In this document: positions 41,848 through 63,537 of the stretch, piece by piece
Layout: each line of letters starts with the position of its first letter
Numbering within the stretch: position 1 is the stretch's first letter
NCBI GenBank assembly: GCA_965368165.1
Contig: CBDULT010000003.1
Span: forward strand, 133,474 to 197,473
DNA: 64,000 nt
Origin: an uncultured Thalassospiraceae bacterium
GTDB taxonomy: Bacteria > Pseudomonadota > Alphaproteobacteria > Rhodospirillales > JAPHRK01
Direction of reading: 5' to 3'
The notes under the pieces: model-generated
Seen by the model: only the letters and a program-made list of their open reading frames with translations
Databases searched by the model: none
What the model was told of the DNA's origin: nothing
Position numbers and translations under genes: made by a program

Positions 41848-42939
41848 TTGCCCAGCCTTATTAAAAACGAGTGTTTTGTTAGAATGTCTGCAAGTTCCGC
41901 TTTAAATGTGATGCAACGCCGACACAACATAATAGCCTTATGGCTTTTGTTGGTTTGCCTAATGGTCTTTGCCATGATTGTCCTCGGAGGTGTGACTCGG
42001 TTGACCCAGTCTGGGTTGTCTATGGTCAATTGGCATCCGGTCACGGGGTGGTTCCCTCCTTTAAATGAAGCCGATTGGCAATCAGAATTTGCAAATTATC
42101 AACAATACCCTGAATTCCATAAAAAGAATTTTGATATGGATTTGCAAGGGTTCAAGTCAATTTTTTGGTTTGAATTCCTTCACCGTTTGTGGGGTCGAAC
42201 AATTGGGATCGCCTATTTTGTCCCGATGGTTTTTTTCTTCACGATGGGATGGGTTCAGGGTGGTTTAAGGTTAAAGCTTGTGATTGGATTCGTCCTTGGG
42301 GGACTTCAGGGCGTTTTGGGTTGGTACATGGTAAAGAGTGGGTTGGTTGATAATCCTGATGTTAGCCAATATCGGCTAACGGCTCACTTGGGAGCGGCCT
42401 TGATAATTATAAGCTATCTCCTTTGGTTGGCACTTGGTCTTTTGCATCCCAAACGAAATCAACCTAAAAAATCTTTTGGAAAATTATCAAGGCATGCGTT
42501 TTTTGCCACTTCGTGGGCTTTTATTACCCTTTTGTCAGGTGGTTTTGTCGCTGGGTTGGATGCGGGGTTAACCTATAACACTTTCCCTTTGATGGATGGG
42601 CAGTTGGTTCCCGATGGGCTCTTTCAAATGGAGCCAGTATTTATTAATTTTTTTGAAAATATAACAACAGTACAATTTGATCACCGTCTGCTTGCCGAGT
42701 CCTTGTTTGTTATCATTGTTTATCTTTGGTGGCGGGCGAGGGAGCTGGATATTCCTCAGCGGGGACGGTTGGCACTTAATTTACTTTTTGCCATGATTTG
42801 GATTCAGGTTGGGTTAGGTATTACCACCCTGCTGTTGGTGGTTCCGGTTTCTATCGCCGCCATTCACCAGGCTGGGGCAGTGATTGTCCTCAGTTTGGCT
42901 ATTTGGGTTACTCATGAAGCCAAGAACGCCAACTCCTAA
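41848..42939 (+). CDS. ctaA: Heme A synthase (COX15/CtaA)
   Basis: Eight TM helices with conserved His in LHR and DHR motifs (FEFLHRLWGR, QFDHRLLA). TTG start in the track; the ATG at 41884 (MSASSAL) is an alternative. Confidence 0.85.
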   Translation: MPSLIKNECFVRMSASSALNVMQRRHNIIALWLLLVCLMVFAMIVLGGVTRLTQSGLSMVNWHPVTGWFPPLNEADWQSEFANYQQYPEFHKKNFDMDLQGFKSIFWFEFLHRLWGRTIGIAYFVPMVFFFTMGWVQGGLRLKLVIGFVLGGLQGVLGWYMVKSGLVDNPDVSQYRLTAHLGAALIIISYLLWLALGLLHPKRNQPKKSFGKLSRHAFFATSWAFITLLSGGFVAGLDAGLTYNTFPLMDGQLVPDGLFQMEPVFINFFENITTVQFDHRLLAESLFVIIVYLWWRARELDIPQRGRLALNLLFAMIWIQVGLGITTLLLVVPVSIAAIHQAGAVIVLSLAIWVTHEAKNANS

Positions 42940-42971
42940 TAATTAAAGATGTTTGGAAATAAGGTTTAACT

Positions 42972-43160
42972 ATGGATTTATTTTATTTTACCGCTGCAGG
43001 AATCGTCTCCTGGGTTGTTGCTGATGCCCTGTTAGACCGAATCGAAACCATGAGGGGGAAGCGTTTTACCCATCGAAGCGTCATTTTCTTCGGATTGATC
43101 CTGGTAACACTGCTTATTGTCTTCGAAGGAAGTAAATACATCCTTGGGGCAAAAACCTAA
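42972..43160 (+). CDS. Small two-TM hypothetical membrane protein
   Basis: 62 aa with two hydrophobic helices, lying 32 nt downstream of ctaA. Confidence 0.4.
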   Translation: MDLFYFTAAGIVSWVVADALLDRIETMRGKRFTHRSVIFFGLILVTLLIVFEGSKYILGAKT

Positions 43161-43177
43161 GCGTTTACTTTATTAAG

Positions 43178-43191
43178 TTGATTTAACTCAA
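43178..43191. promoter_or_regulatory. FNR/Dnr-type box, one mismatch (TTGATttaaCTCAA)
   Basis: Matches TTGAT-N4-ATCAA except for one base. It lies upstream of the HCO operon, but about 360 nt from the first ORF. Confidence 0.4.
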
Positions 43192-43552: not shown

Positions 43553-43711
43553 ATGACCGAACCCAATAACACTGAGGACGGCCCTGTTCCGTTCATGCAA
43601 CAGCTTTTGGATAATCCATTTTTGCTGCTGTTCGTAGGCGTCGCATTACCGTCGGTTCTTTACACAATCTGGGGAATCGTGGACGTAATGTCGATTCCTG
43701 TTGGTCAATAA
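43553..43711 (+). CDS. Unlisted 52-aa single-TM ORF preceding HCO subunit II
   Basis: ATG preceded by GGGAGG at -12 to -7. Reads MTEPNNTEDGPVPFMQQLLDNPFLLLFVGVALPSVLYTIWGIVDVMSIPVGQ*. It ends 18 nt before subunit II and is below the ORF-track size cutoff. Confidence 0.45.
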   Translation: MTEPNNTEDGPVPFMQQLLDNPFLLLFVGVALPSVLYTIWGIVDVMSIPVGQ

Positions 43712-43729
43712 GGGATAGGAGATCGCACT

Positions 43730-44266
43730 ATGGCTATTTTCCCCCCACCACAAAAAATTTGGTGGAATGAGCCGGTAGAGAGAACTGAAGCTCTCTGGAT
43801 CGGTATCGCCCTTATTTGGGCGATGATCTTGTTCTTCATGATGCCTTATTGGCACATTGTTGGGCAACAAAACCTTTCAAATGAAGCTTACAAGGTTAGC
43901 CCTGAAGCTTTTGTTGAAAAAGTTGATGCTTATGTTGCTGCGAATACTATTCGCGAAGAAGGTGACACTGGCATTCCTGTTGTAAAAGCAACTGACAGCG
44001 GCGACGTTTATATGCTTGGTCGTCTATGGGAATGGTTCCCGATTCTTGAGCTTGAAAAAGGCAAAAGCTATCGTTTCCATCTTTCCTCTGCTGACTGGCT
44101 GCATGGTTGGTCACTTCAGCCTACCAACATCAATATTCAGGTTCACCCTGGCTATGAGATGATCTTTAACGTAACGCCAACCGAAACCGGTGAATTCGGC
44201 GTTGTTTGTAATGAATTTTGTGGAGTTGGTCACCATACCATGCTCGGCAAAATTTATGTGAAATAA
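43730..44266 (+). CDS. Heme-copper oxidase subunit II with intact CuA site
   Basis: One N-terminal TM helix and a cupredoxin domain. CuA ligands are H125 (DWLHGW) and C160-NEF-C164-GVG-H168-HT-M171. Confidence 0.85.
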   Translation: MAIFPPPQKIWWNEPVERTEALWIGIALIWAMILFFMMPYWHIVGQQNLSNEAYKVSPEAFVEKVDAYVAANTIREEGDTGIPVVKATDSGDVYMLGRLWEWFPILELEKGKSYRFHLSSADWLHGWSLQPTNINIQVHPGYEMIFNVTPTETGEFGVVCNEFCGVGHHTMLGKIYVK

Positions 44267-44279: not shown

Positions 44280-45962
44280 ATGGCTGCGACTCACGAATAT
44301 CGCACATGTCCTGACACTGGATTCAAAATTGATCTTAATGCTGATAAGCTGATCAAATGGAATGCCGTGTCAGCTGTAGTGTTCTTGCTCGTTGGTGGTC
44401 TTTTTGGCCTCCTGGTAGCTCTAACACGCTGGCCTACAGTACACTTACTGGACGCTGAACTTTTCTATCTGGCTCTGACTGCACACGGTGTGGACATCCT
44501 TTTGGTATGGCTGATCTTCTTTGAAATGGCCCTGCTTTACTTCTGCTCTAGCGTTCTCCTGCAATGCCGTGTAGCCACACCAAAACTCGGTTGGCTTGCT
44601 TACTGGCTGATGCTTGGTGGTGCTGTAATGGGTAACGTTGCCGTTCTGATGGGCGAATCCAGCGTTATGTTCACCTCTTACGTGCCGATGAAGGCTTCTC
44701 CCTTGTTCTACTTGGGTCTGATCCTTTTCGCCGTTGGTGCACTTATCGTTTGTTTCATCTTCTTCGGCACTTTGGTTATTGCTAAGAAAGAAAAAACCTT
44801 CGAGGGTTCAATTCCTCTGGTGACCTATGGTGCCATGGTTGCAGCTATTATCGCTGTTTACACCATCGTATCTGGTGCTGTGATCCTGATCCCGACCCTT
44901 GCTTGGTCATTAGGTTTTATTCCTTACATTGATACCCTGCTCTATAAGGTTATCTGGTGGGGACTTGGTCACTCTTCTCAACAGGTTAATGTTTCCGCTC
45001 AAATCTCTTGCTGGTACGCTGTTGCCGCAGTCGTTTTTGGTGCGAAGCCAATTTCCGAGAAGGTTTGCCGTACGGCCTTCCTCATGTACATCTTGTTCCT
45101 GCAGTTAGCTTCTGCTCACCACCTTCTGGTGGATCCAGGCCTGACTTCAGAATACAAGATCTTCAACACCTCTTACGCTTTCTACCTCGCTGTATTCGGT
45201 TCCATGATGCATGGTTTGACCGTTCCTGGCGCGATGGAATTGGCGCAGCGCCGCAAGGGCTACACCAAAGGGCTGTTTGAGTGGCTGAGGAAAGCTCCTT
45301 GGGGTAATCCTGCATTCTCAGGTACTTTCCTGTCGATCGTTATCTTTGGCTTCCTCGGTGGTATCACCGGCGTTGTTATGGGTACCGAGCAGTTGAACCT
45401 GATCATGCACAACACCATCTATGTACCGGGTCACTTCCACGCTACGACAGCTGGTGGTACCACATTGGCATTCATGGCTCTGTCTTACTGGTTGGTTCCA
45501 ACCTTATGGCAACGTGAGCTTTGGGCACCGGGTCTGGCTAAACTTCAGCCTTACCTGTTCGGTATCGGTGTTTCCGGTATTGCTCTGTTCCAAATGGGTG
45601 CTGGTACCTTGGGTGTTTCCCGTCGTCACTGGGATATGACCTTTGCTGATGCTGCTTTGACCTATGACTATCCAGCTGCGGCTCACCTTATGATGGCTCT
45701 TAATGGCGTGTTCGCTATTATCGCTGCTATCGGTGGTGGTCTCTTCTGTATCCAAATGGTCCTTACCATTCTTGGTAAGAAAAAACCAGCTCCTGCAGAA
45801 GCTCCTGCTGCACCAGCTGCCGAAGCTCTGACTGGTCACGGTCATGGCGCAGGTCTTGCTGTACCAGGAACCTTTGTTTTGGCTCTGATCTTCTTGACCA
45901 CTTTCGTTCTCTACTATTTCGTGAACTGGAAGTATCTGTCAGAAGTCTGGATCCTCAGCTAA
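44280..45962 (+). CDS. Heme-copper oxidase superfamily subunit I, B-family-like, lacking the cross-linked Tyr (candidate NO reductase)
   Basis: Six canonical His: H69, H231, H280/H281, H385/H387. The motif is GH231-SSQ-Q235 where A/B oxidases have H-x3-Y. An extra C-terminal helix follows a Pro/Ala linker. Confidence 0.9.
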   Translation: MAATHEYRTCPDTGFKIDLNADKLIKWNAVSAVVFLLVGGLFGLLVALTRWPTVHLLDAELFYLALTAHGVDILLVWLIFFEMALLYFCSSVLLQCRVATPKLGWLAYWLMLGGAVMGNVAVLMGESSVMFTSYVPMKASPLFYLGLILFAVGALIVCFIFFGTLVIAKKEKTFEGSIPLVTYGAMVAAIIAVYTIVSGAVILIPTLAWSLGFIPYIDTLLYKVIWWGLGHSSQQVNVSAQISCWYAVAAVVFGAKPISEKVCRTAFLMYILFLQLASAHHLLVDPGLTSEYKIFNTSYAFYLAVFGSMMHGLTVPGAMELAQRRKGYTKGLFEWLRKAPWGNPAFSGTFLSIVIFGFLGGITGVVMGTEQLNLIMHNTIYVPGHFHATTAGGTTLAFMALSYWLVPTLWQRELWAPGLAKLQPYLFGIGVSGIALFQMGAGTLGVSRRHWDMTFADAALTYDYPAAAHLMMALNGVFAIIAAIGGGLFCIQMVLTILGKKKPAPAEAPAAPAAEALTGHGHGAGLAVPGTFVLALIFLTTFVLYYFVNWKYLSEVWILS

Positions 45963-46016
45963 AGGCTGCGGTGAAGGTAATCTGTTAAAACGATTGCCGA
46001 GTTAACTTTTTAGGGG

Positions 46017-46057
46017 GGGCGCCTTTCCGGTCACGGAAGGGCGCCCTTCTTTTTTTC
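46017..46057 (+). terminator. Rho-independent terminator after HCO subunit I
   Basis: 13-bp GC-rich stem (46017-46029 / 46034-46046, one G-U pair), 4-nt loop, then TTCTTTTTTT. Confidence 0.7.
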
Positions 46058-46094: not shown

Positions 46095-46108
46095 TTGACC
46101 TAGAACAA
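46095..46108. promoter_or_regulatory. FNR/Dnr-type box, one mismatch (TTGACctagAACAA)
   Basis: Lies just upstream of the SCO1 gene. The spacing implies a very short leader or use of the internal Met (MTKT, 46159). Confidence 0.35.
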
Positions 46109-46134: not shown

Positions 46135-47022
46135 ATGCTGAGCATGTTGATATCAAAAATGACCAAAACTTTGTTGAGTTTTTTTACGGCTCTTTTCGCC
46201 CTTGTGGTAATGATGGGGAACCTGTCTTTAGCGGCTCCAAGTGCTGTTATTGATGCTTGGCCTCCTAACGCCAAAGATATGGATCAAAAGGCCGCGTTTA
46301 AATATAGCCAAAGCGCGCTGAAGCACGTGATCAGAGACGCAAAATTTACGGATCAAAATGGCAACCCGGTTTCATTGGCTGATTTCAGGGGGAAACCCTT
46401 GGTCGTAAGCTTTATCTATACAAGCTGTGTTTCCGTTTGTGTCACCATTACTGATAGCCTGTTACATTCTCTAGATGTGGCGAACGAAACCTTTGGTGAA
46501 GATCAATTTAATATTCTAACCATTGGCTTTGATACCAGTTTTGACACGCCTGAAAGTATGAAAAAGTTTGCCGAAAGGCAGGATGCGGGAGCAAAAAACT
46601 GGATGTTTTTGAGCGGTGATATCCTCAATGTTTCCCAGCTTTCCGATGACTTGGGGTTCTTCTTCTATCGGACCCCAGAGGGGTTTGACCACCTGGCTCA
46701 AGTTACCGTGATTAATAAAGTTGGTAAGGTTTATAAACAGGTTTACGGTGAATCCTTTGATACGCCTCACCTTATTGAGCCCCTCAAGGATATTATTTAT
46801 CATACGGAAAAGTCGATTTTTACGGCCGAAGGGCTCTACAAGAAACTGCAGTTCTACTGCACTGTGTATGACCCGGAGACCGATAGATATAAGTTTGACT
46901 ATTCCTATTTTATCAGCTTATTTGCGGGAGTTACCGTGATGATAGTTCCTGCTTGGGTGCTGTTCAGAACCGTGCGAAGAACTCGAAGTGAGCGGAACGC
47001 ACGAAAAGCAAAATTAGTTTGA
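46135..47022 (+). CDS. SCO1/SenC copper chaperone with extra C-terminal segment and second TM helix
   Basis: N-terminal anchor and thioredoxin-fold CxxxC (SFIYTSCVSVCVT) with a downstream His (FDHLAQV). The C-terminal YCTVYDPETDRYKFDYS is followed by a TM helix. Confidence 0.8.
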   Translation: MLSMLISKMTKTLLSFFTALFALVVMMGNLSLAAPSAVIDAWPPNAKDMDQKAAFKYSQSALKHVIRDAKFTDQNGNPVSLADFRGKPLVVSFIYTSCVSVCVTITDSLLHSLDVANETFGEDQFNILTIGFDTSFDTPESMKKFAERQDAGAKNWMFLSGDILNVSQLSDDLGFFFYRTPEGFDHLAQVTVINKVGKVYKQVYGESFDTPHLIEPLKDIIYHTEKSIFTAEGLYKKLQFYCTVYDPETDRYKFDYSYFISLFAGVTVMIVPAWVLFRTVRRTRSERNARKAKLV

Positions 47023-47128: not shown

Positions 47129-48712
47129 TTGTTGGATGCATTTAAGACTGCACTCAGGGTGCCATTCCTCTATTTCGAAGGACTTCTGGATGCTATTTTT
47201 GGGCAGCGGTTTAATCCGGTGTACCATCTTGGCGCACTCTGCTGGTTTTTCTATTGGATCGTTGCAATTACGGGTCTTTACCTGTTCATGGTTTTTGATA
47301 CAGGCGTACATGTCGTATACGAATCAATTGAATGGTTAACCAATGAGCAGTGGTGGTTTGGCGGCATCGCCCGGAGCCTCCACCGTTATGCTTCTGATGG
47401 TATGGTTTTTGCCATGCTTATTCATATGCTGCGGGAATTTGCCTTAGATCGTTATCATGGTGTGCGGTGGTTTGCATGGTTTACAGGCGTGCCGCTGATC
47501 TGGCTTCTTTTGACTTCAGGGATTACAGGCTATTGGTTGGTCTGGGATGAATTAGCCCAGTACATGGCTGTCGCCTCTTTTGAATGGCTTGATTGGCTTT
47601 CAATCTTTAGTGAACCTATTGCCAACAACTTCTTGCGTGAAGGCAGCCTTGGGGATCGTTTCTTCACCTTGCTGATCTTCATCCACATTTTTGTGCCGCT
47701 ATTTATGTTGTTTATCATGTGGATTCATCTGCTGCGTATGGCGCGAGCTGAAATCAATCCACCGAAAGCGATTGCCTTGGGGGCCTTTGCTCTATTGCTT
47801 GTCCTCTCTTTGGTCTATCCAGCAACAAGCCACCCGCCTGCTGACCTGAGTAAAATTCCGGTCGTTCTTAATCTCGATTGGTGGTTCTTGTTCGGCTATC
47901 CCTTCTTGGATATGACAGGACCAGGAACTCTATGGGCTGTCGCGGTTATTGGCTCTATAATTATTGCTGTACTGCCTTTTGTTATTCCTCATCGTATACC
48001 GACCCCAGCAGTCGTTAACCTTGATAATTGTAATGGCTGTGGACGTTGTTTTGAGGACTGTCCCTTTGGTGCAGTAACAATTCAACCCCGGACGGATGGT
48101 CATCCTAAGTATGAATTTGAGGCTATTGTTAAGGATAGCTTCTGTACCGCATGTGGAACTTGTTCGGGGGCCTGTCCATCCTCAAGCCCTTATCGTCGTG
48201 GCGAAGAACTGGTCACGGGTATTGATCTTCCAGACGTCCCGCTGACGGCTATTCGGGCAAGGCTTAATGCTGAGGCTAAGCGCTTAAAAGGCGATGTTAA
48301 GATTGTTGTCTTTGGATGTGAATTCGGAGGGGCTTTGAAGGAACTCGAAAGCGATGTGGTCGGAACGGTGCAAATGTCTTGTATAGCCCAGGTTCCTCCC
48401 GCATTTATTGAATATGCTTTGTCTCGTGCTGGGTTCGACGGTCTCGTCCTTTCAGCTTGTCGCCCAGGGGATTGTTATCACCGATTGGGTGTCCATTGGA
48501 CTGAAGAACGTTTGACTGGTTATCGGGACCCCTACCTTCGTCCAAAAATTTCTCGTGACGCCATCCGTGTTACCTGGGCGCGTCCAACCGAAATGGGGAA
48601 AATTAAACGTGAACTTGGTGAGTTTGTTGAGACTGTTACCAACAGAAAGACGGCTCCTGTAATTGATTCTGCTGAAGTTACCGATGCTAACGAAACGACA
48701 ACAGGCGAGTAG
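47129..48712 (+). CDS. Fusion protein: di-heme cytochrome b core + 2x[4Fe-4S] ferredoxin domain + MvhD/FlpD-like domain
   Basis: H85/H99 and H186/H200 sit at the 14-residue register. Cluster motifs CNGCGRCFEDCP and CTACGTCSGACP. MvhD-like VVFGCEFGG...MSCIAQV...GFDGLVLSACRPGDCYH. TTG start. Confidence 0.8.
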   Translation: MLDAFKTALRVPFLYFEGLLDAIFGQRFNPVYHLGALCWFFYWIVAITGLYLFMVFDTGVHVVYESIEWLTNEQWWFGGIARSLHRYASDGMVFAMLIHMLREFALDRYHGVRWFAWFTGVPLIWLLLTSGITGYWLVWDELAQYMAVASFEWLDWLSIFSEPIANNFLREGSLGDRFFTLLIFIHIFVPLFMLFIMWIHLLRMARAEINPPKAIALGAFALLLVLSLVYPATSHPPADLSKIPVVLNLDWWFLFGYPFLDMTGPGTLWAVAVIGSIIIAVLPFVIPHRIPTPAVVNLDNCNGCGRCFEDCPFGAVTIQPRTDGHPKYEFEAIVKDSFCTACGTCSGACPSSSPYRRGEELVTGIDLPDVPLTAIRARLNAEAKRLKGDVKIVVFGCEFGGALKELESDVVGTVQMSCIAQVPPAFIEYALSRAGFDGLVLSACRPGDCYHRLGVHWTEERLTGYRDPYLRPKISRDAIRVTWARPTEMGKIKRELGEFVETVTNRKTAPVIDSAEVTDANETTTGE

Positions 48713-48721: not shown

Positions 48722-49288
48722 ATGAAAACGAACATTGTTCCAGATAAATATTTCCCAGAAGGTATTGCCGAAAAAGTAACGCCTGCGGTGTTGGTTCGTC
48801 GCATAATAGGCTTGTCAGCTTTTGCTCTTCTGACCATGTTTATTATTGGATACTTTTCAGCGTCTCCGGCTTATCATCACTTGGCTGAAAACGAAGCCGT
48901 TATTAAAGTTAGTATTACCCATAACGGGAAACGCCTTCAGGCATGTGTGAAAAAGACACGGGCCGAGTTGGCAAAATTGCCTCCAAATATGCGGGCAAAG
49001 ATGACTTGCGGACGTGAAAGAACACCTGTTCTATTGGTTGTGGCTATTGATGGGAAAGAAATTTATCGTCATGTTTCAAAGCCTAACGGTCTTTCCAGTG
49101 ATGGAGCTTCTATTTTTTATCAAAAACTGATTGTTCCTACGGGGACTCACGAAGTAAGTGTCTTGATGCGTGACAGCGTGCGCGATGAAGGTTTTGATTT
49201 TGAATATAGAGATAAGGTTGATTTGACCAGTGGTCGCAACTTTGTTGTGACCTTTGATGAGCAAAATCGCAAATTTAAAATCTATTGA
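48722..49288 (+). CDS. Single-TM hypothetical protein co-transcribed with the cytochrome b fusion
   Basis: Starts 9 nt after the upstream stop. One TM helix (IIGLSAFALLTMFIIGYF), then a beta-rich domain with two Cys. Confidence 0.5.
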   Translation: MKTNIVPDKYFPEGIAEKVTPAVLVRRIIGLSAFALLTMFIIGYFSASPAYHHLAENEAVIKVSITHNGKRLQACVKKTRAELAKLPPNMRAKMTCGRERTPVLLVVAIDGKEIYRHVSKPNGLSSDGASIFYQKLIVPTGTHEVSVLMRDSVRDEGFDFEYRDKVDLTSGRNFVVTFDEQNRKFKIY

Positions 49289-49316: not shown

Positions 49317-49330
49317 TTGACTTTTGTCAA
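49317..49330. promoter_or_regulatory. Perfect palindromic FNR/Dnr/NnrR box TTGACttttGTCAA
   Basis: Exact TTGAC-N4-GTCAA, 52 nt upstream of the first Crp/Fnr gene start. Confidence 0.7.
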
Positions 49331-49337: not shown

Positions 49338-49376
49338 GAATAGGTGTCGGCATTCGGCACCTATTCTTCTTATTTT
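49338..49376 (+). terminator. Rho-independent terminator after the cytochrome b operon
   Basis: 12-bp stem (49338-49349 / 49555-style pairing at 49355-49366, one G-U pair), 5-nt loop, then TTCTTATTTT. Confidence 0.6.
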
Positions 49377-49381: not shown

Positions 49382-50110
49382 GTGAGCCACGTGACAGAAA
49401 CCAGTTCCCAATTTTTACCGGATAACGCTCTTGGAGCTTTAAAAGCGACAGCTCTTTTTAAGCGGTTGCCGAAGGATCAAATCGCTACTCTTTTTAGCGG
49501 TGGGGCTGTTGAAGAAATGTCTCTTAATGAGGTCCTCTTTAAACAAGACGAAGATGCTGATCGCTTTTATTTAATTCTGAGTGGTCGCGTCGAATTGTTT
49601 GTTGAGTCGGCGAAACACAAAGAAAGCATTATCGATATTATTGGTCCGGGTGAATATTTTGGAATTGCGTCTATCTTTGAAAAAGGGGCTTTCCAAAACG
49701 GCGCTAAAGTCGTTGAAGACGCAACTTTCGTGGTCATGCCAGCGATTCCTTTCCTTGAGCACTTAGAGGGCAACTTCCCCCTTATTAAAGATATGATGGC
49801 CAGCATGTCTTTTCATCTTCGCTCCCTGGTCCGTCAGGTGAGTGAGCTAAAGCTCAAAACAACGGGGCAACGGTTGGGGAGTTTTCTTCTTGGGCTTACC
49901 GATGTTGAAACCGGCAAGGCTCAGGTAAAACTTCCCTATGACAAAAAATTACTGGCGAATCGTTTAGGGATGAAACCTGAAAGCCTCTCAAGAGCTTTAG
50001 GGAAATTAAGAGATGTGGGAGTTGTTGGGGACCATGACTCATTGATTTTAGAAGATGTGGAAACTTTAAGAATATTTTGTCAGGATTCTGACTTGATGCA
50101 GTCATCATAA
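49382..50110 (+). CDS. Crp/Fnr-family regulator, Dnr/NnrR type (no N-terminal Cys cluster)
   Basis: cNMP-binding-like beta-roll, dimerisation helix, and an HTH with the FNR-family E-x-x-S-R motif (MKPESLSRALGKL). GTG start. Confidence 0.85.
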   Translation: MSHVTETSSQFLPDNALGALKATALFKRLPKDQIATLFSGGAVEEMSLNEVLFKQDEDADRFYLILSGRVELFVESAKHKESIIDIIGPGEYFGIASIFEKGAFQNGAKVVEDATFVVMPAIPFLEHLEGNFPLIKDMMASMSFHLRSLVRQVSELKLKTTGQRLGSFLLGLTDVETGKAQVKLPYDKKLLANRLGMKPESLSRALGKLRDVGVVGDHDSLILEDVETLRIFCQDSDLMQSS

Positions 50111-56316: not shown

Positions 56317-56330
56317 TTGACCAACATCAA
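56317..56330. promoter_or_regulatory. Consensus FNR/Dnr box TTGACcaacATCAA upstream of the nirE operon
   Basis: Both half-sites match the consensus. The centre is about 105 nt upstream of the nirE GTG. Confidence 0.7.
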
Positions 56331-56428: not shown

Positions 56429-57208
56429 GTGAGTAAGGATGTCAAAGTACATTTGGTCGGAGGGGGTCCAGGGGACCCTGAGCTGCTAACCGTAAAGGCT
56501 GTCCGTCTTCTGCAAGAAGCAGAGGTGGTTATTCTTGATCGCTTGATTTCCGAAGATATCCTCAAGCTCATCCCTAAGGGTACAAGCTGTATCTATGCGG
56601 GCAAGGCCCCTGGTCGGCACTATGTATCTCAAGATGAAATTAATGAAATGTTGGTTAAGGTCGCCCAATCTGGGCGCAAAGTAGTCCGTCTTAAAGGCGG
56701 CGACCCTTTTGTTTTTGGTCGCGGCGGCGAAGAGGCTTTGTTCCTTGCTGAGCATGGCATTCAATTTGAAATTGTTCCCGGTATTACGGCTGGTATGGGC
56801 TGCGGAAGCTCTTTAGGTATTCCGCTTACACACCGTGGTTTGGCTAAAAGTGTTCGTTTTGTTACGGGCCATAGTCGCAATAATGGGGAACTGGACCTTA
56901 ACTGGAAAAGCCTTGCAGACCCGGATACCACACTGGTCATCTACATGGGGCTAGGCACCATAGGTGAGGTGACATCAAATCTTATTTCGGCAGGACTGCC
57001 CGCAAGTACCCCTGTAGCAGCCGTTGAAAAAGGCTCAACCGAAGACGAGCGATGCTGTATAACCACCTTATCTGACCTTGAAGGTAAGGTGCGGGTTGAA
57101 GGCTTTATGCCTCCGACTTTGTTTATCGTTGGTAAGGTTGTTACGCTTGCCAAGCAGTTGAACCCAACTCTTGAAGATGTTGATGCTGGTTTGAGAATCG
57201 TTGGTTAA
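56429..57208 (+). CDS. nirE: Uroporphyrinogen-III C-methyltransferase (SUMT) of the heme d1 pathway
   Basis: VHLVGGGPGDPELLTVKA and GGDPFVFGRGGEE motifs. GTG start with an SD, positioned first in the nir biogenesis operon. Confidence 0.9.
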   Translation: MSKDVKVHLVGGGPGDPELLTVKAVRLLQEAEVVILDRLISEDILKLIPKGTSCIYAGKAPGRHYVSQDEINEMLVKVAQSGRKVVRLKGGDPFVFGRGGEEALFLAEHGIQFEIVPGITAGMGCGSSLGIPLTHRGLAKSVRFVTGHSRNNGELDLNWKSLADPDTTLVIYMGLGTIGEVTSNLISAGLPASTPVAAVEKGSTEDERCCITTLSDLEGKVRVEGFMPPTLFIVGKVVTLAKQLNPTLEDVDAGLRIVG

Positions 57209-57226
57209 TACTGGGTATTACTTAAA

Positions 57227-57577
57227 ATGAAATTTTTCCGCCTGTCCCAAGGGGCATGGCTTTGCGCCGCCATTCTGTCTCTTCCGTTTTTTGTACCTTC
57301 TGCCGCAGGTGCAGAGCCTTCTGCGGAGCGTAAAGCTGAACTGGCTTATTTTCTTGAGCAGGACTGTGGCTCTTGCCATGGCTTGACCCGCAAGGGGGGG
57401 CTTGGGACTCCGCTTACGCCAGAAAGTGTCGCTAAAACAGATGACGAAACCCTGTTTGATGTCATCATGAATGGTATCCCTGGAACGCCTATGCCGCCCT
57501 GGAAGGCGTTGCTAAGTTCCGATGAAGTCCATTATTTGATCCAGCTCATAAGAAAAGGGAAAAACCACGATGGTTAA
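57227..57577 (+). CDS. nirC: Monoheme cytochrome c (c55X-type)
   Basis: Signal peptide and CGSCHG. Small class-I cytochrome located between nirE and nirF. Confidence 0.8.
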   Translation: MKFFRLSQGAWLCAAILSLPFFVPSAAGAEPSAERKAELAYFLEQDCGSCHGLTRKGGLGTPLTPESVAKTDDETLFDVIMNGIPGTPMPPWKALLSSDEVHYLIQLIRKGKNHDG

Positions 57578-58748
57578 GTTTTTACGCCCGTTTGCTTTGG
57601 TCCTGTTTGCCCTAACCCTGAGTGGGTGCGTGACTTCCTTGCGTGGTACAGGTGACATGGGCCTTATTATTGAGCGTACTGACGGTTCTGTTCTTATTGT
57701 CGACCATTCGGTAGGCAAACCATTAGGACGGGTTGAAGGCTTGGGAGACTTAAGCCATGCCTCTGCTGTTTATTCCCGAGATGAGCGCTATGCCTATATT
57801 TTTGGCCGCGATGGGGGGCTGACCAAAGTTGATATCCTGACCCAAAAAATTGTGGGTCGGGTTATTCAGGGGGGCAACTCTATTGGAGGGGCGATCTCTC
57901 AGGATGGCAGCTTGATCGCCGTTTCCAATTACAAACCGGGGGGAGTTAAAGTCTTTGACTCCAAAACATTGGAACTTGTTGCTGACGTTCCCGCCATGGA
58001 AGAGGGCGAAACGAAAGGGTCTAAGACGGTTGGTCTTGTTGATGTGCCGGGGCAAAAATTTGTTTACGGCCTTTATGATGCGGGCGAGATATGGTCTCTC
58101 GATTTCTCTAAAGGTCGAACACCAAAGGTTACGAAATACAGAGATACGGGCACTCAGCCTTATGACGGTCTCGTTACTCCAGACGGACGTTACTATATTT
58201 CTGGCCTGTTTGGGGAAGATGGGCTTTCCTTGCTTGATCTGTGGCATACCGAAAAAGGCGTAAAACGTATCCTGGCGGGGTATGGCAAAGGTGAAAAATC
58301 TTTGCCTGTCTACAAAATGCCTCACCTCGAAGGTTGGGCCGTTGCAGATGATCTTGCTTTCCTCCCTGCTGTTGGTCGGCATGAACTTTTGGTGGTCAAT
58401 CGCAAAACCTGGAAAGAGGTGGGTCGGGTTCCTGTTCATGGGCAACCTGTTTTTGCCATGGGCCAACCAGATGGTCGCCAGATTTGGGTGAATTTTGCTT
58501 TGCCTCACAATGACACCATTCAGGTAATTGATGTCGAGACCTTAAAAGTCATTAAAACCATGAAACCCGGCAAAGGCGTTCTCCACATGGAGTTCACCCC
58601 CAGAGGGGATAAAGTTTGGATGTCGGTTCGCGATGCAAACCGGGTTGATATCTATGATACGGTGACTTTTGAGCGTCTTGGGAATTTTGAAGCTAAACGC
58701 CCAAGCGGTATCTTTTTCACCAATCGTGCCCATAAAATTGGTTTGTAG
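57570..58748 (+). CDS. nirF: Heme d1 biosynthesis protein NirF (cd1-like beta-propeller, no heme-c domain), lipoprotein
   Basis: Lipobox LTLSGC. Sequence is homologous to the NirS/NirN propeller. It overlaps nirC by 8 nt. Confidence 0.85.
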   Translation: MVKFLRPFALVLFALTLSGCVTSLRGTGDMGLIIERTDGSVLIVDHSVGKPLGRVEGLGDLSHASAVYSRDERYAYIFGRDGGLTKVDILTQKIVGRVIQGGNSIGGAISQDGSLIAVSNYKPGGVKVFDSKTLELVADVPAMEEGETKGSKTVGLVDVPGQKFVYGLYDAGEIWSLDFSKGRTPKVTKYRDTGTQPYDGLVTPDGRYYISGLFGEDGLSLLDLWHTEKGVKRILAGYGKGEKSLPVYKMPHLEGWAVADDLAFLPAVGRHELLVVNRKTWKEVGRVPVHGQPVFAMGQPDGRQIWVNFALPHNDTIQVIDVETLKVIKTMKPGKGVLHMEFTPRGDKVWMSVRDANRVDIYDTVTFERLGNFEAKRPSGIFFTNRAHKIGL

Positions 58749-58790
58749 TAGTATAATAATTACCTAAACAGGCCACGCCGCTACTAAAAT

Positions 58791-58902
58791 ACGTCACTCC
58801 CGCGAAGGCGGGAGTCCAGAAATGAAGGTATAGATATTTAATGATGATCGACCGCACAGTTCATGCAACCCTGGATTTCCGCCTTCGCGGGAATGATGAC
58901 GT
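58791..58902. repeat. 112-bp MITE/REP-like palindromic element between nirF and nirD
   Basis: Left end is ACGTCACTCCCGCGAAGGCGGGAGTCCAG. The reverse complement of the right end is ACGTCATCATTCCCGCGAAGGCGGAAATCCAG. Each end also contains its own GCGGGA/TCCCGC mini-hairpin. Confidence 0.6.
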
Positions 58903-58917
58903 TTGAGCTAAGTATTT

Positions 58918-59370
58918 ATGGATCAAGAGTTAAAACAACGGCTTTTGGAAGAGTATCAGCGGGACTTTCCTTTCAGTGCCACCCCCTATGCCGATATTGC
59001 TGAGGATTTGGGGGTGAGTGAAGAAGAAGTTCTCGAGACTTTCCAGGCCCTTTGTGAGGGTGGGACGATCAGCCGTATTGGGGCGGTCTTTAAGCCTCAT
59101 AGCGTTGGGGCCAGTACTTTAGCCGCTCTTTCTGCACCAGAAAATGATTTAGAAAAAATTGCCAAAATAGTTAGTGATTTCAAAGAAGTGAACCATAACT
59201 ATGAGCGTGAACATGCTTTTAATCTGTGGTTCGTGGTCACAGCAGATGATCAAGACGGTGTTGACCGCACTCTTGCAGAGATCGAAAAAAAAACCGGCTG
59301 TCAGGTGCTTAATCTGCCCATGCTGAAAGGCTATCATCTCGACTTAGGATTCAAAATCAAATGGAACTAA
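58918..59370 (+). CDS. nirD: Siroheme decarboxylase subunit (Lrp/AsnC-like NirD)
   Basis: LEEYQRDFPFSATPYADIAEDLGVSEEEVL and VNHNYEREHAFNLWFV are typical NirD/L/G/H (AhbA/B) motifs. Confidence 0.8.
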   Translation: MDQELKQRLLEEYQRDFPFSATPYADIAEDLGVSEEEVLETFQALCEGGTISRIGAVFKPHSVGASTLAALSAPENDLEKIAKIVSDFKEVNHNYEREHAFNLWFVVTADDQDGVDRTLAEIEKKTGCQVLNLPMLKGYHLDLGFKIKWN

Positions 59371-59852
59371 GTGAAACAGATAAGCTATTGGTCGGAGTCG
59401 TTGCTAAGGGTCTTCCGATTATCTCTCGTCCCTACGAAGAAATCGGTCGCCAAATAGGCTTGAGCGAGGAAGAGGTTATTCTCCGTCTTGCTGATCTATG
59501 CACAGCGGGTACCATCAAACGCTTTGGTGTGGTCGTGCGCCACCATGAACTTGGCTATAAGGCCAATGCCATGTGCGTTTGGGATATTCCGGATGGGCGT
59601 ATGGAAGAGATTGCCGAAAAATTCAGCTCATATGATTTTGTTACCCTTTGTTATCAACGCCCCCGACGTCTTCCGCAGTGGCCTTATAGCTTGTTTTGTA
59701 TGATCCATGGCAAAGAGCGCGCGGAAGTGTTGAAGCAGGCAGAGCAATTGGTCAAAGATTGCGGGCTGGAAGATGTCCAGCGTGATGTGCTATTCAGCGG
59801 GCGACGTTTTAAACAAAGAGGGGCGCGCTACGGCATGGTCGCATCGCAATAG
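59361..59852 (+). CDS. nirL: Siroheme decarboxylase subunit NirL
   Basis: Paralogue with IKRFGVVVRHHELGYKANAM...VTLCYQRPRRLPQWPYSLFCMIHG. It overlaps nirD by 10 nt. Confidence 0.8.
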   Translation: MELSETDKLLVGVVAKGLPIISRPYEEIGRQIGLSEEEVILRLADLCTAGTIKRFGVVVRHHELGYKANAMCVWDIPDGRMEEIAEKFSSYDFVTLCYQRPRRLPQWPYSLFCMIHGKERAEVLKQAEQLVKDCGLEDVQRDVLFSGRRFKQRGARYGMVASQ

Positions 59853-59856
59853 ATTT

Positions 59857-60324
59857 ATGAGAGAAGATAAAACCCACTTGCTCGATGACAAAGACCGGGC
59901 TTTGATCAATCACTATCAAGGGGATTTCCCCTTGTGCGAAAACCCCTTTGCTGTGGTTGGTAAAGCCGTTGGTTTAACCGAAGATGAAGCTATTCAACGC
60001 ATTCAAAGGCTTTTGGATGAAGGCGTCCTTACCCGTTTTGGTCCTTTATATCATGCCGAGCGCATGGGCGGGGGATTGACCCTGGCGGCGATGAAAATTC
60101 CTCCTGAAGATTTCGATGAAGCTGTTGAGAAAGTTAATCAATTCCCGGAAGTTGCTCATAACTATGCGCGGGAACATGCGTTGAATATGTGGTTTGTTCT
60201 GGCGACGGAAACACCAGAACGCATTGAAGAGGTTGTTGCAGAGATTGAAGAGGCGACAGGCTATAAGGTTTACAATATGCCTAAAGAAGAAGAGTTCTTT
60301 GTTGAACTCAAATTTGAGGCCTGA
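59857..60324 (+). CDS. nirG: Siroheme decarboxylase subunit NirG
   Basis: INHYQGDFPLCENPFAVVGKAVGLTEDEAI and VAHNYAREHALNMWFV. The ATG at 59857 is preferred over the track start at 59773. Confidence 0.8.
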   Translation: MREDKTHLLDDKDRALINHYQGDFPLCENPFAVVGKAVGLTEDEAIQRIQRLLDEGVLTRFGPLYHAERMGGGLTLAAMKIPPEDFDEAVEKVNQFPEVAHNYAREHALNMWFVLATETPERIEEVVAEIEEATGYKVYNMPKEEEFFVELKFEA

Positions 60325-60329
60325 GTATT

Positions 60330-60809
60330 ATGGATGACATAGATCGTCAAATTGTCCTCGCCACTCAAGGGGGCCTTCCTCTTGTCCCTAAACCCTATGA
60401 GGCCGTAGGCGAAACCGTTGGGGTTTCTTCTGCCGAAGTAATAGAGCGCATGGAAATTATGCTGGAAAACGGCATGATTCGCCGTATCGGCCTGGTGCCG
60501 AATCATTATGCTTTGGGGTATAAGTTTAACGGCATGACCACCTGGAATGTCCCAGACGAAAAAGCCCGCGAACTTGGAAAAAAGATTGGTGCTTTGGCTT
60601 GCGTTACCCATAGTTACTTAAGGCCCCGCCACTTGCCGGACTGGCCCTACAATATTTTTGCCATGGTTCACGGTAAGGATAGGGCGACGGCTGAAGCTGG
60701 GGTTGAGCAAATTGCGCAAGTATTAGGGGAGCATAACCAAGGTCATATGGTTTTGTTCAGTACTAAGATACTTAAGAAAACAGGCCTGCGATTAGGCGGG
60801 AAGAAGTAA
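60330..60809 (+). CDS. nirH: Siroheme decarboxylase subunit NirH
   Basis: IRRIGLVPNHYALGYKFNGM...VTHSYLRPRHLPDWPYNIFAMVHG. Confidence 0.8.
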   Translation: MDDIDRQIVLATQGGLPLVPKPYEAVGETVGVSSAEVIERMEIMLENGMIRRIGLVPNHYALGYKFNGMTTWNVPDEKARELGKKIGALACVTHSYLRPRHLPDWPYNIFAMVHGKDRATAEAGVEQIAQVLGEHNQGHMVLFSTKILKKTGLRLGGKK

Positions 60810-60822
60810 GGATACTAAGTTT

Positions 60823-61965
60823 ATGTTTCGCCTGTCACAGTTTATTCGTGAGATTGATAACCCAACGCCCGTAAAACCTTTCCGCAACCCTCCGGGACCT
60901 GTTGTCATTTGGAACTTGCTGCGCAAGTGCAACCTGGGCTGTAAACATTGTTATTCCTCCTCGTCCAATAAAGACTTCAGCGGAGAGTTGGAGACCGAAG
61001 AATTATTCACGGTGATGGAAGACCTTAAAGGGTTCCGGGTTCCCGTACTTATTCTTTCCGGGGGAGAACCCCTGCTGCACCCTGATATTTTCAAAATTTC
61101 AAAACGTGGTAAAGAGATGGGCTTCTATGTGGCTCTCTCTTCAAATGGCACCAAAATCACCGAAGATAATATCGGGGATATCGTCGCCATGGATTACAAC
61201 TACGTCGGGATCAGTATTGACGGTATTGGCGCAACGAATGATAAATTCAGAGTGATGGACGGGGCCTATGATGCCGCTGTTAAAGGCGTTAAGTTGTGCC
61301 AGGATGCGGGAATTAAAGTGGGTTTGCGCTTCACCATGACCCAAGATAACGCAACCGAACTTCCCAAGATGCTCGATTTGATGGATGAGTTAGATATTGA
61401 TAAATTCTATCTCTCCCACCTTAATTACGCTGGGCGAGGTAACGCCGCGCGCGAAGATGATGCTTTCTTCTCTATGACCCGTGATGCCATGGAAGTGATG
61501 TTCGAGCGCAGTCTCAAGGCTCAACGGGCTGGAATTGAGCGGGAATATGTCACCGGGAATAATGATGCCGATGGCGTCTTTATGCTGCACTGGATTAAAA
61601 AACATCATCCAGAGCATGCGGAGCATATGGAACAAAAGCTTATCCAGTGGGGTGGCAACGCGACGGGGGTCAATGTGTCTAATATTGATAACCGAGGAAA
61701 TGTGCATCCCGATACCATGTGGAGCCACCATACTCTTGGCAATGTTAAAGAACGCCCCTTTTCAGAAATTTGGTCCGATGTTTCCAATCCTTTGATGGCG
61801 GGCCTTAAGCAACGGCCACGAACTCTAAAAGGACGTTGCGGAGACTGTAAATATCAAGCTATTTGTAACGGTAATACCCGCGTTCGTGCTGAACGGACAA
61901 CAGGGGATGCCTGGGCCGAAGACCCCGGATGTTATTTAACCGATGCCGAAATTGGTTTGGCTTAG
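60823..61965 (+). CDS. nirJ: Radical SAM heme d1 biosynthesis protein NirJ
   Basis: CNLGCKHCY radical-SAM cluster motif and a C-terminal auxiliary Cys cluster (CGDCKYQAICNG). Confidence 0.9.
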   Translation: MFRLSQFIREIDNPTPVKPFRNPPGPVVIWNLLRKCNLGCKHCYSSSSNKDFSGELETEELFTVMEDLKGFRVPVLILSGGEPLLHPDIFKISKRGKEMGFYVALSSNGTKITEDNIGDIVAMDYNYVGISIDGIGATNDKFRVMDGAYDAAVKGVKLCQDAGIKVGLRFTMTQDNATELPKMLDLMDELDIDKFYLSHLNYAGRGNAAREDDAFFSMTRDAMEVMFERSLKAQRAGIEREYVTGNNDADGVFMLHWIKKHHPEHAEHMEQKLIQWGGNATGVNVSNIDNRGNVHPDTMWSHHTLGNVKERPFSEIWSDVSNPLMAGLKQRPRTLKGRCGDCKYQAICNGNTRVRAERTTGDAWAEDPGCYLTDAEIGLA

Positions 61966-61977
61966 GAACTGGAAATC

Positions 61978-63537
61978 ATGAAGCTGGTCAAATCTCTTTT
62001 CGTCGCCGCGTTGTTTTTCCCTTTCGCGGCCCAGGCTGCAGAAATGGATGCGGGCAAGCTCTATGAAGAGCATTGCCAATCTTGTCATGGTGTCGGTCGT
62101 TTGGGCGGGCAGGGACCGGCTTTGTTGCCCAGCGTGATGAAACGTTTACGCAAGCAAAGTGCCGTTAAAGTGATTATGGATGGGCGCGCCGCCACGCAAA
62201 TGGAAGGCTTCAAAGAGAAACTAAATCAAGCCCAAGTAGATGTGCTGATTGAATATATCTACAAGCCATTGCCGCAGGTGCCGACCTGGAACATGGGGCA
62301 AATTAAAGAAACTCATGATGTGATGATTGATCCGGCGACCTTGCCGAAAACCCCGCAACATAAAGCCGACCCCATGAACCTATTCACGGTGGTTGAGGGC
62401 GGGGATCACCACGTCACGATCTTGGATGGCGATAAGTTCGAACCCCTCTGGCGATTTGCTACCCGGTTTACCCTTCATGGGGGGGCAAAGTATTCTCCCG
62501 ATGGACGCTTTGTTTACCTCGCTACCCGTGATGGCTGGGTGTCTATGCATGACCTGCATAACTTTAAGACGATTGCTGAGGTGCGTGTCGGGATTAACAC
62601 CCGCAATATTGCCGTTTCTGCCGATGGTAAATACGTTATGGCAGGGAACTATCTGCCTCATTCCTTAGTGGTTCTTGATGCTAAAGATTTGAGCCCCGTT
62701 AAGTATATTCCCGTTGCCGATAAAAAGGGTAATACATCAAGAGTTTCAGCCGTTTATGCCGCCCCGCCACGGGATAGCTTTATTGTTGCCCTAAAAGATA
62801 TCAAAGAGATTTGGGAGCTTTCCTGGGACCCTAATGCAGAGCCCATCTACGGAAGTTTCGTCCATAGCTACCGTAAAGGTCAGTTGGAAGCGATCGTCGA
62901 GTATGAACAGCCCTTTGGCATTCGCCGCATTAAAGTGCCGGATTATATGGAAGATTTCTTCTTTGACCCGTCTTACTCTGAAGTGATTGGTGCCGCACGA
63001 AATGCCAAAAAAGGTGTCGTCTTTAATCTGGATGCGCGCCGTAAGGCCGGAGATTTAGAACTCGCCAGTATGCCCCACCTAGGCTCAGGTATTTATTGGA
63101 AGCGTGGTGAGCAGCTTTTGATGGCAACGCCTCACCTCAAAGGGGGGGAGGTCAGTGTGATTGATATGGATACTTGGAAGACAGTCAAGAAGATCAAGAC
63201 GAAAGGCCCAGGTTTCTTTATGCGCAGTCACAAGAACAGTCCTTATGCTTGGGTAGATGTCTTCTTTGGTCCCCATAAAGACCTGCTTCATGTCATTGAT
63301 AAAAACACTCTTGAAATTGTCAAAACCATTAATCCGGCTCCGGGTAAAACCAATGCCCATGTCGAATTTACCAAAAATGGTAGCCATGTTCTTGTATCCG
63401 TTTGGGAACAAGATGGCGCGTTGGTGGTTTACGATGCCAAAACTTTTGAAGAGGTGAAGCGCATTCCCATGAAGAAACCCGTGGGAAAGTATAACGTCTA
63501 TAATAAAATCACCTATGAAGAAGGTACCAGCCACTGA
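61978..63537 (+). CDS. nirN: NirN (cd1-like dihydro-heme d1 dehydrogenase)
   Basis: Signal peptide, heme-c site CQSCHG, and a NirS-like propeller. It is the last gene of the nir biogenesis operon. Confidence 0.85.
   Translation: MKLVKSLFVAALFFPFAAQAAEMDAGKLYEEHCQSCHGVGRLGGQGPALLPSVMKRLRKQSAVKVIMDGRAATQMEGFKEKLNQAQVDVLIEYIYKPLPQVPTWNMGQIKETHDVMIDPATLPKTPQHKADPMNLFTVVEGGDHHVTILDGDKFEPLWRFATRFTLHGGAKYSPDGRFVYLATRDGWVSMHDLHNFKTIAEVRVGINTRNIAVSADGKYVMAGNYLPHSLVVLDAKDLSPVKYIPVADKKGNTSRVSAVYAAPPRDSFIVALKDIKEIWELSWDPNAEPIYGSFVHSYRKGQLEAIVEYEQPFGIRRIKVPDYMEDFFFDPSYSEVIGAARNAKKGVVFNLDARRKAGDLELASMPHLGSGIYWKRGEQLLMATPHLKGGEVSVIDMDTWKTVKKIKTKGPGFFMRSHKNSPYAWVDVFFGPHKDLLHVIDKNTLEIVKTINPAPGKTNAHVEFTKNGSHVLVSVWEQDGALVVYDAKTFEEVKRIPMKKPVGKYNVYNKITYEEGTSH

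Follow-up and report, generated by a model that had tools for sequence, protein, structure and literature searches.

A probable nitrite-to-N2O locus made of three modules, one of them a conserved eNOR cassette, in an uncultured Thalassospiraceae bacterium

Does a block of genes for the reduction of nitrite and nitric oxide (NO) in an uncultured marine Thalassospiraceae bacterium constitute one indivisible respiratory system with wiring of its own, or is it a juxtaposition of modules that also occur apart? The block covers 21.7 kb (positions 41848 to 63537) of the 64-kb stretch of contig CBDULT010000003.1 (assembly GCA_965368165.1) that was analysed in this study and is called the window here. 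A first-pass annotation had taken it for a self-contained, bc1-independent route from nitrite to nitrous oxide (N2O) with non-canonical parts. Its gene inventory is real and was confirmed almost gene for gene by the listing of open reading frames (ORFs) and by Pfam and NCBIfam profile searches; three conserved genes were absent from it, namely s62, s52 and a gene for a 188-aa protein (hyp188). The coherent nitrite-to-N2O route with cofactor supply and NO-type regulators that it described is also supported. We consider it likely that the region is a genuine nitrite-to-N2O locus of three modules that are separately inherited elsewhere, with the wiring proposed below. The first module is a cassette of the NO-reducing heme-copper family eNOR, with a unit of s52 and subunits II and I, a unit of Sco, a cytochrome b fusion and hyp188, and ctaA and s62 upstream. 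The second comprises nirS, a fused NirT-NirB-NirB cytochrome and a cupredoxin, and the third the heme d1 genes nirECFDLGHJN; two Dnr-type regulators lie between the first and the second.

The catalytic heme-copper-type protein (subunit I, 560 aa) is encoded at 44280..45962 on the + strand. It was assigned by alignment to ba3 oxidase and by comparison of motifs across phyla. Its best relatives in the PDB are the B-family ba3 oxidases of Thermus (4e-48), its relatives are named 'cbb3-type cytochrome c oxidase subunit I' by the Prokaryotic Genome Annotation Pipeline (PGAP), and the neighbouring ctaA requires O2 (PMC11214002), as might be expected of a B-family O2 reductase for microaerobic respiration to which the nir genes are mere neighbours. 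The CuB/FeB ligands are kept (H231, H280 and H281 for H233, H282 and H283 of ba3), the heme-ligating His can be read directly in a TAHG and an HFH motif, and four of the six K-channel residues of ba3 are retained (Y248, S261, S309 and T315), while Y244 and T312 are changed to Ile and His. However, the cross-linked Tyr237 of ba3 is replaced by Gln235 (HSSQQ aligned to HPIVY), no alternative was noted, and a Gln in this position is the published mark of eNORs (PMC8756737). The surrounding GHSSQQVN conforms to GH(S/G)(S/A)QQ(V/I)N, which is common to the plasmid-borne homologues of Defluviimonas, Thermomicrobium roseum and Thermus thermophilus, not to ba3. Murali et al. (2024) found that the purified eNOR of Rhodothermus marinus reduces NO and not O2 (PMC11214002), and FNR/Dnr boxes, nir genes, NnrS and hemerythrin are found near eNOR in relatives. 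An O2 reductase is highly improbable on these grounds, and this identity was rejected because of the Tyr-to-Gln replacement. Judged by its sequence, the enzyme is a clear member of the eNOR family. A heme-copper oxidase (HCO) that contains CuA, lacks the tyrosine and belongs to an NO reductase type other than NorCB had been proposed before us, and Gln235 and the kept CuA ligands bear this out; an NO reductase predicted to use heme A is a correct description but one already known, because the eNOR family has been described (PMC8756737, PMC11214002).

Subunit II (43730..44266, + strand, Pfam COX2) has 178 aa with one transmembrane helix and a CuA cupredoxin domain. It aligns to subunit II of T. 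thermophilus ba3 oxidase (1e-16), and its CuA motif is complete (LHGW and H..CNEFCGVGHHTM), all the CuA ligands of the ba3 subunit being matched. Directly 5' of it lies s52 (43553..43711, + strand), a single-pass membrane ORF of 52 aa, and a small ORF is annotated in the same position in the eNOR loci of Defluviimonas, Thermomicrobium and Thermus; s52 is probably a small eNOR subunit, placed like subunit IIa of ba3 oxidase. Upstream are ctaA for heme A synthase (41848..42939, + strand, Pfam COX15-CtaA 1.9e-107) and s62 (42972..43160, + strand), an ORF of 62 aa with two predicted membrane spans that is called as a gene in public assemblies. The gene callers start ctaA at ATG 41884, which yields 351 aa, the length also found in independent assemblies. 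The eNOR of R. marinus carries heme A-type hemes, and the presence of ctaA in many eNOR operons was already noted in 2024 (PMC11214002). The adjacent ctaA is the sole local sign that suggests a heme A-type cofactor in the eNOR of the window.

To survey the conservation of these genes, relatives of subunit I were sought in a single genome from each species, and the proteins of the window were mapped on the 80 best loci; Sco, the cytochrome b fusion and hyp188 were scored where at least 5.5 kb was available 3' of subunit I (n=60). Subunit II was present in 79 and s52 in 78 of the 80 loci, and Sco, the cytochrome b fusion and hyp188 were found all together behind eNOR in 60 of 60. Starting from the cytochrome b fusion gave the same picture, since all three contexts obtained read Sco, fusion, hyp188, one of them with a truncated relic of subunit I. 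The cytochrome b/Fe-S/MvhD protein and hyp188 are fixed members of the proteobacterial eNOR cassette, which is a new result. Carriers belong to the Thalassospiraceae/Rhodospirillales, the Hyphomicrobiales, the Woeseiaceae and Chromatiales metagenome-assembled genomes (MAGs); a Phaeospirillum sp. MAG and a plasmid of the cultured Defluviimonas sp. SAOS-178_SWC, where the full cassette is followed by a hemerythrin gene, are among them. Other neighbours were less constant. In 38 of 74 loci a UbiA-type heme O synthase gene separates subunit I from Sco, the window being without it there; s62 is conserved upstream of s52 in 41 of 80 loci (tblastn), a Dnr-like gene occurs in 29, a nir gene of any kind in 24 and ctaA beside eNOR in 7. 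The eNOR loci of Thermus and Thermomicrobium consist of the small ORF, subunit II and subunit I only, with a heme O synthase added in Thermomicrobium, and neither of them contains Sco, the cytochrome b fusion or hyp188.

The same survey bears on the proposal that the 21.7 kb form one co-regulated, self-contained system with its own quinol oxidation that replaces bc1, cytochrome c and NorCB by a new wiring. All the functions do adjoin each other, and the closest relative keeps the order from ctaA to the cupredoxin gene up to the end of its contig. In searches with Ruegeria proteins, neither the window nor the DNA up to 10 kb from eNOR in the 80 relatives gave a match to norB, norC or nosZ. However, the modules assort independently: the nirS-nirTB-cupredoxin triad accompanies eNOR in 5 of the 80 loci, the cassette stands without it in 75, and in Ruegeria the triad goes with norCBQD and nosZ. 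Conservation of the block as a unit, which we checked by this comparison, did not hold, and we regard the island as a juxtaposition of modules rather than one indivisible system because they occur apart, both in these loci and in Ruegeria and Azospirillum brasilense. A single system of the kind proposed appears doubtful to us.

A hemerythrin-family gene lies directly 3' of the hyp188 homologue in several loci (L087, 10088-10483; L088, 10135-10530; L090, 14529-14933), and its position after hyp188 is occupied by the two dnr genes in the window. In L087, a gammaproteobacterial MAG (CP070821.1, 5733-10483), subunit I is reduced to its last 137 residues, while the accessory genes (heme O synthase, Sco, fusion and hyp188 homologue) and the hemerythrin gene are preserved whole; here the accessory half of the cassette has persisted longer than the catalytic one. 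The Phaeospirillum locus (L074, 9453-11300) has a second, distant heme-copper oxidase pair directly downstream of the cassette, with 24% and 36% identity to eNOR subunits I and II.

What, then, do the fixed accessory genes do? The first of them (46135..47022, + strand, Pfam SCO1-SenC 4e-16) encodes a Sco-type copper chaperone with a CVSVC motif and a membrane anchor at each end. The second (47129..48712, + strand, assigned by Pfam and NCBIfam) encodes a fusion of 527 aa that joins a cytochrome b to two [4Fe-4S] clusters and an MvhD domain. In its AlphaFold2 (AF2) model (predicted local distance difference test, pLDDT, 82), the first ~290 residues superpose on helices A-F of bc1 cytochrome b, which gave the top Foldseek matches, and helices G and H are replaced by the Fe-S/MvhD domain. 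From the topology of bc1, this domain is placed by inference on the cytoplasmic side, and the C-terminal part is similar to the module of HdrA2 that combines ferredoxin and MvhD. Among 43 homologues, the heme His (H85, H99, H186 and H200, in bc1 spacing), all eight ferredoxin Cys and the MvhD residues C397, C418 and C444 are invariant, with C449 close to invariant. Nor is there any variation in D250-W251 of LDWWFLFGYP, which corresponds to the PEWY loop of the Qo site; by our reading of the sequence, the Qi-site His (bovine H201) is not kept. The third gene, hyp188 (48722..49288, + strand), encodes 188 aa with an N-terminal transmembrane helix and a beta-sandwich (AF2 pLDDT 92), two invariant Cys (C75 and C96) and an invariant ELxxLPPNMR...CxRER stretch. 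It has no match in Pfam or NCBIfam, a scan of 41 family members at E values up to 1 returned nothing consistent, and the Foldseek comparison of the model with the PDB gave generic beta-sandwich matches only (E above 0.001). It may correspond to what the Ferrigenium preprint (bioRxiv 10.64898/2026.01.22.701106) calls an 'eNOR scaffold protein of unknown function'.

The first-pass annotation had treated the cytochrome b fusion as an open question, and we agree. With low confidence, we propose for the fusion and hyp188 a role in maturation or redox supply tied to Sco, and rank it slightly above a role as respiratory partner. The maturation role is suggested because the pair sits in the Sco unit behind a strong terminator, because the heme O synthase gene, where present, lies after subunit I and directly 5' of sco, and because the Thermus and Thermomicrobium loci lack Sco, the fusion and hyp188 together. 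It is suggested also by CcoG, a membrane cupric reductase of cbb3 oxidase assembly that has two cytoplasmic [4Fe-4S] clusters and an immunoglobulin-like (Ig-like) domain and is encoded with assembly factors downstream of the oxidase genes (PMC7558416). By analogy with CcoG, a quinol-linked diheme b wire would join the membrane and periplasmic side to the cytoplasmic Fe-S clusters. Three points weigh against this proposal. In the fusion, the Qo-type pocket is complete (D250-W251 and helices C to F), which also fits a catalytic quinol oxidase; the protein is conserved as highly as the catalytic subunit, with a mean column identity of 61%; and hyp188 has no detectable similarity to the Ig-like domain of CcoG or to any Pfam or PDB entry.

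On the other hand, the pair might be a respiratory partner, either as a Rieske-less quinol oxidase that feeds eNOR or by coupling NO reduction to the reduction of a low-potential carrier in the cytoplasm. The bc1-type cytochrome b with its two b hemes and its retained Qo-type pocket, the HdrA2-like C-terminal part and the strict co-occurrence with eNOR in proteobacteria all speak for a partner of this kind, as does the Ferrigenium variant with FAD/NADH domains, the proteins of which were detected in the proteome (bioRxiv 10.64898/2026.01.22.701106). However, no Rieske motif and no cytochrome c1 partner is encoded in the window or in the 80 related loci, the gene is grouped with Sco behind a strong terminator, and the electron flow from quinol to [4Fe-4S] would be uphill. 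Moreover, the eNORs of Thermus and Thermomicrobium do without the fusion, and NO reduction by the isolated R. marinus eNOR was assayed with N,N,N',N'-tetramethyl-p-phenylenediamine (TMPD)/ascorbate as the donor (PMC11214002). We therefore hold a respiratory partner to be a tentative alternative and rather improbable. A more elaborate form of it, in which the fusion, hyp188 and eNOR make up a Rieske-less quinol:NO oxidoreductase supercomplex with quinone-based electron bifurcation, is distinctly unlikely. In such a complex the high potential of NO reduction would pull one quinol electron through CuA, and the second electron would pass via the two b hemes to the cytoplasmic Fe-S/MvhD part and then to a low-potential carrier. 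Apart from these alternatives, the maturation role would mean a new route for metallating a heme-copper enzyme if the pair are assembly factors; if they are catalytic machinery, the bioenergetics of NO respiration would be in need of revision, and with bifurcation NO respiration would be energy-conserving in a new way. The question is now narrowed to two uncharacterised proteins and can be tested by experiment.

The nitrite module begins with nirS (54260..55870, - strand), whose product, called as 536 aa, is a cytochrome cd1 nitrite reductase (Pfam Cytochrom_D1 1.7e-117 and a c-type heme domain with CAGCH); the longest ORF reaches GTG 55924. It is followed by a gene for a NirT-NirB-NirB fusion of 892 aa (51441..54119, - strand, Pfam Cytochrom_NNT 3e-71 and two EB_dh matches). 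The NirT domain has an N-terminal membrane anchor and CXXCH motifs at residues 50, 80, 140 and 172; the Cytochrom_NNT match spans residues 21-183, and the TIGR02161 score of the whole protein (255 bits) is below the full-length cutoff of 310.6. Two NirB-like repeats of ~320 residues follow, joined by Ala/Pro/Lys-rich linkers. The repeats share 74% identity as proteins and 73-80% as DNA, and each has a CTECH and a CWATCH motif. The EB_dh fold is otherwise known for the heme b-binding subunits of enzymes of the type II dimethyl sulfoxide (DMSO)-reductase family. CWATCH is an unusual CX3CH motif (residues 388 and 722 of the protein). A search of PDB sequences with one repeat found no match. The repeats appear NirB-like by their diheme motifs, their gene position, the reported fused NirTB and the standalone homologues of 320 aa. 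In 1.8 billion cluster representatives, standalone NirB-like modules of about this length (~320 aa) are many and several clusters have NirT with one NirB module (523-599 aa); the doubled form recurs in a single further cluster (924 aa, three matched stretches). An assembly artefact was considered for the doubling and rejected, as the repeats differ in 20-27% of their DNA; the 892-aa call in an independent assembly and the 924-aa relative also speak against it.

The carrier encoded next (50847..51269, - strand, Pfam Copper-bind) is a periplasmic type-1 cupredoxin with a signal peptide, amicyanin/plastocyanin-like (2e-9 against amicyanin, with His, Cys and His aligned), and the gene in this position after nirTB is annotated as 'plastocyanin/azurin family' in Ruegeria and Azospirillum. 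In strain ZoBell, nitrite reduction depends on the tetraheme NirT, the diheme NirB is encoded downstream of nirS, and a fused NirTB has already been reported in Halomonas (PMC13086519). The nitrite module thus follows the nirSTBM scheme, except that NirT and NirB are joined and a cupredoxin stands in for cytochrome c551, and it is not tied to eNOR. The parts that had been called non-canonical are members of described kinds, eNOR on the one side (PMC11214002) and NirT/NirB with the fused NirTB on the other (PMC13086519).

The third module, the genes for heme d1 biosynthesis and insertion (nirE-nirC-nirF-nirD-nirL-nirG-nirH-nirJ-nirN, 56429..63537, + strand), was recognised by Pfam matches to TP_methylase, cytochrome c, Cytochrom_D1, four NirDL-like HTH/AsnC domains, Radical_SAM and Cytochrom_D1, and is colinear with the annotated Ruegeria cluster. 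At the other end of the block, directly upstream of ctaA, lies a trio of genes on the - strand: a CbiX-family chelatase (37629-38363), a glycosyltransferase-family-3/anthranilate phosphoribosyltransferase-like protein (38469-39467) and a hybrid histidine kinase in which PAS, receiver and Hpt domains are combined (39554-41674). Heme d1 synthesis needs a sirohydrochlorin ferrochelatase step, which could be provided by CbiX. The trio is not conserved beside eNOR in the other loci.

From these genes, we infer the following electron path. Quinol would be oxidised by the membrane-anchored tetraheme domain of NirT, and NirS, which would reduce nitrite to NO, would receive the electrons via the diheme NirB modules tethered to NirT and via the soluble cupredoxin. 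They would probably also reach the CuA of eNOR, where 2 NO would be converted to N2O at heme A-type hemes. The placement of a NapC/NirT quinol dehydrogenase to feed NirS had been pointed out before and is supported here; its position with the cupredoxin between nirS and the eNOR cassette would also be expected of a single system. By analogy with NirT in Stutzerimonas, independence of bc1 is plausible for nitrite reduction by NirS. However, every part is of a described kind, so that the novel wiring mostly dissolves into eNOR, NirT/NirB, cupredoxin donors and Dnr, and 'self-contained' and 'bc1-independent' are conjectural labels; within the window there are no nor, nos, nar/nap or bc1 genes. 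Our own reading as three modules also has points against it here. It draws on 64 kb of genes, and norCB, nosZ, nar/nap and petABC may be present elsewhere in the genome. In addition, a route from the cupredoxin or NirB to CuA is probable at most.

Regulation was considered next to the modules. The gene dnr1 (49382..50110, + strand, the callers starting at 49391) encodes a Crp/Fnr-family protein (Pfam cNMP_binding and HTH_Crp_2), and dnr2 (50148..50846, + strand) a Dnr-type protein that matches Pseudomonas aeruginosa DNR (3dkw, 1e-29). Both are without the N-terminal Cys cluster of FNR and contain no Cys motifs, and they are predicted to be NO-type regulators. The dnr2 gene and the cupredoxin gene, on opposite strands, converge at 50846/50847 with zero intergenic bases and no detectable terminator. 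Boxes were scored out of 10 against TTGAT-N4-ATCAA. Two reached 9/10: TTGATTTAACTCAA at 43178..43191, 375 nt upstream of s52, and TTGACCAACATCAA at 56317..56330, 112 nt upstream of nirE. Weaker boxes (8/10) lie at 46095 before sco and at 49317 before dnr1, and none was found before ctaA. The two 9/10 boxes fall in 2.2 kb of intergenic DNA in which 0.17 would be expected, while the count over the whole window is not above chance. Of 73 related loci, 28 have a box scoring 9/10 or better in the 450 nt ahead of s52, compared with 3% expected. Because of this enrichment across relatives, control by FNR/Dnr is real for the eNOR cassette and general to it. The upstream box lies at the 5' end of a non-coding gap of 392 nt (43161-43552) between s62 and s52, which implies a leader of ~330 nt before the eNOR genes; an Rfam scan of 41-64 kb, this gap included, gave no match.

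From these findings, the eNOR and nirE units at least would most likely be activated by NO-sensing Dnr proteins acting at such boxes. That Dnr-type boxes stand ahead of two units would suit one co-regulated system. However, the block contains about seven units, and a good (9/10) box precedes just two of them; the earlier statement that most units are preceded by FNR boxes was too broad, the total being two 9/10 and two 8/10 boxes. The absence of a box before nirS and before the nirT-cupredoxin unit also weighs against the regulon as we propose it. Likewise, the block had been said to contain four strong terminators, of which three are strong. They follow subunit I (46012..46051, + strand, an 18-bp stem and U tract, -34.5 kcal/mol, z -6.3), hyp188 (49338..49366, + strand, U tract, -19 kcal/mol, z -6.75) and nirS (54234-54205, - strand, U tract, -25.6 kcal/mol, z -6.7). 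The fourth, a hairpin at 58796-58815, is without a U tract on the coding strand, and nothing 3' of nirN is convincing as a terminator.

The surroundings of the block are unremarkable. The 42 kb upstream contain ordinary housekeeping, transport and signalling genes, and the G+C content is even over the whole window. No tRNA, transposase or integrase gene was found in the scanned flanks, in agreement with the first-pass annotation that no mobile-element genes flank the block. Its genes are called likewise in independent public assemblies with an identical eNOR subunit I, so that the uncultured source organism has turned up in several samplings; among its named relatives, Rhodospirillales/Thalassospiraceae MAGs are the nearest.

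Annotation of this enzyme family is problematic. Routinely, eNORs are annotated as 'cbb3-type cytochrome c oxidase subunit I'. PGAP gives this label to NorB in Ruegeria as well as to eNOR subunit I in Defluviimonas, Thermomicrobium and Thermus (L085, 8409-9776; L090, 8962-10692; L091; L092), and eNOR subunit II appears as 'hypothetical protein', 'cytochrome' or 'cytochrome C oxidase subunit II'. The gap in annotation is systematic and conceals NO reductases. Because of it, organisms like the source of the window are scored as nirS carriers without an NO reductase, and they go unrecognised among the N2O sources of marine sediments and oxygen-deficient waters. The cassette of seven genes defined here is strictly conserved and may serve as a marker; it consists of s52, subunits II and I, Sco, the fusion, the beta-sandwich protein and, as an optional member, a heme O synthase. 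What is new in the locus is modest: the doubled NirB module, the combination of modules, and the fixed presence of the fusion and hyp188 in the proteobacterial eNOR cassette.

The nitrite module resembles nirSTBM of Stutzerimonas (Pseudomonas) stutzeri, where nirS is likewise followed by a NapC/NirT tetraheme cytochrome, the diheme NirB and a small soluble carrier. In contrast to that system, NirT and NirB are one polypeptide in the window, NirB is doubled (74% identity) and the carrier is a cupredoxin, not cytochrome c551 (NirM). Further counterparts are on plasmids of Ruegeria sp. THAF33 and A. brasilense Sp7, which carry the triad of nirS, fused nirTB and cupredoxin in the order of the window. 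Their NirTB proteins are 50-56% identical to that of the window but contain a single NirB module. After the triad, the full nirECFDLGHJN follows in Ruegeria, and only a nirN homologue was detected in A. brasilense; the Ruegeria triad adjoins canonical norCBQD-E, nnrS and nosRZD, not eNOR.

The heme-copper enzyme shares with the described eNOR family, represented by R. marinus eNOR and the 'cytochrome a1-like hemoprotein' of Magnetospirillum, the Gln for Tyr, the CuA subunit II, ctaA and the denitrification context. It differs from the Thermus and Thermomicrobium loci in that its proteobacterial clade always adds Sco, the fusion and the beta-sandwich protein. Compared with the cytochrome b of bc1 and b6f complexes, the fusion has helices A-F, the four heme His and LDWWFLFGYP for PEWYFLFAYA, but no Rieske or c1 partner nearby and no Qi-site His. 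CcoG is an analogy only, since the membrane part of the fusion is a diheme cytochrome b, MvhD is added and the beta-sandwich is a separate protein; no match to the Pfam FixG family was found for the fusion or hyp188. The nearest precedent for the pair is the operon of Ferrigenium straubiae, in which eNOR II, eNOR I, a heme O synthase, sco1 and a 'scaffold protein of unknown function' are listed as common, two cytochrome b/[Fe-S] genes are called 'rather unusual', and a quinol:NAD+ oxidoreductase supercomplex is proposed (bioRxiv 10.64898/2026.01.22.701106). This preprint of 2026 is the sole mention of the pair in the literature that we found. In Ferrigenium, FAD and NADH domains on one protein stand in place of MvhD, whereas the MvhD form was found in 60 of 60 alpha- and gammaproteobacterial loci; being universal in the surveyed proteobacterial clade, the MvhD form is not unusual there.

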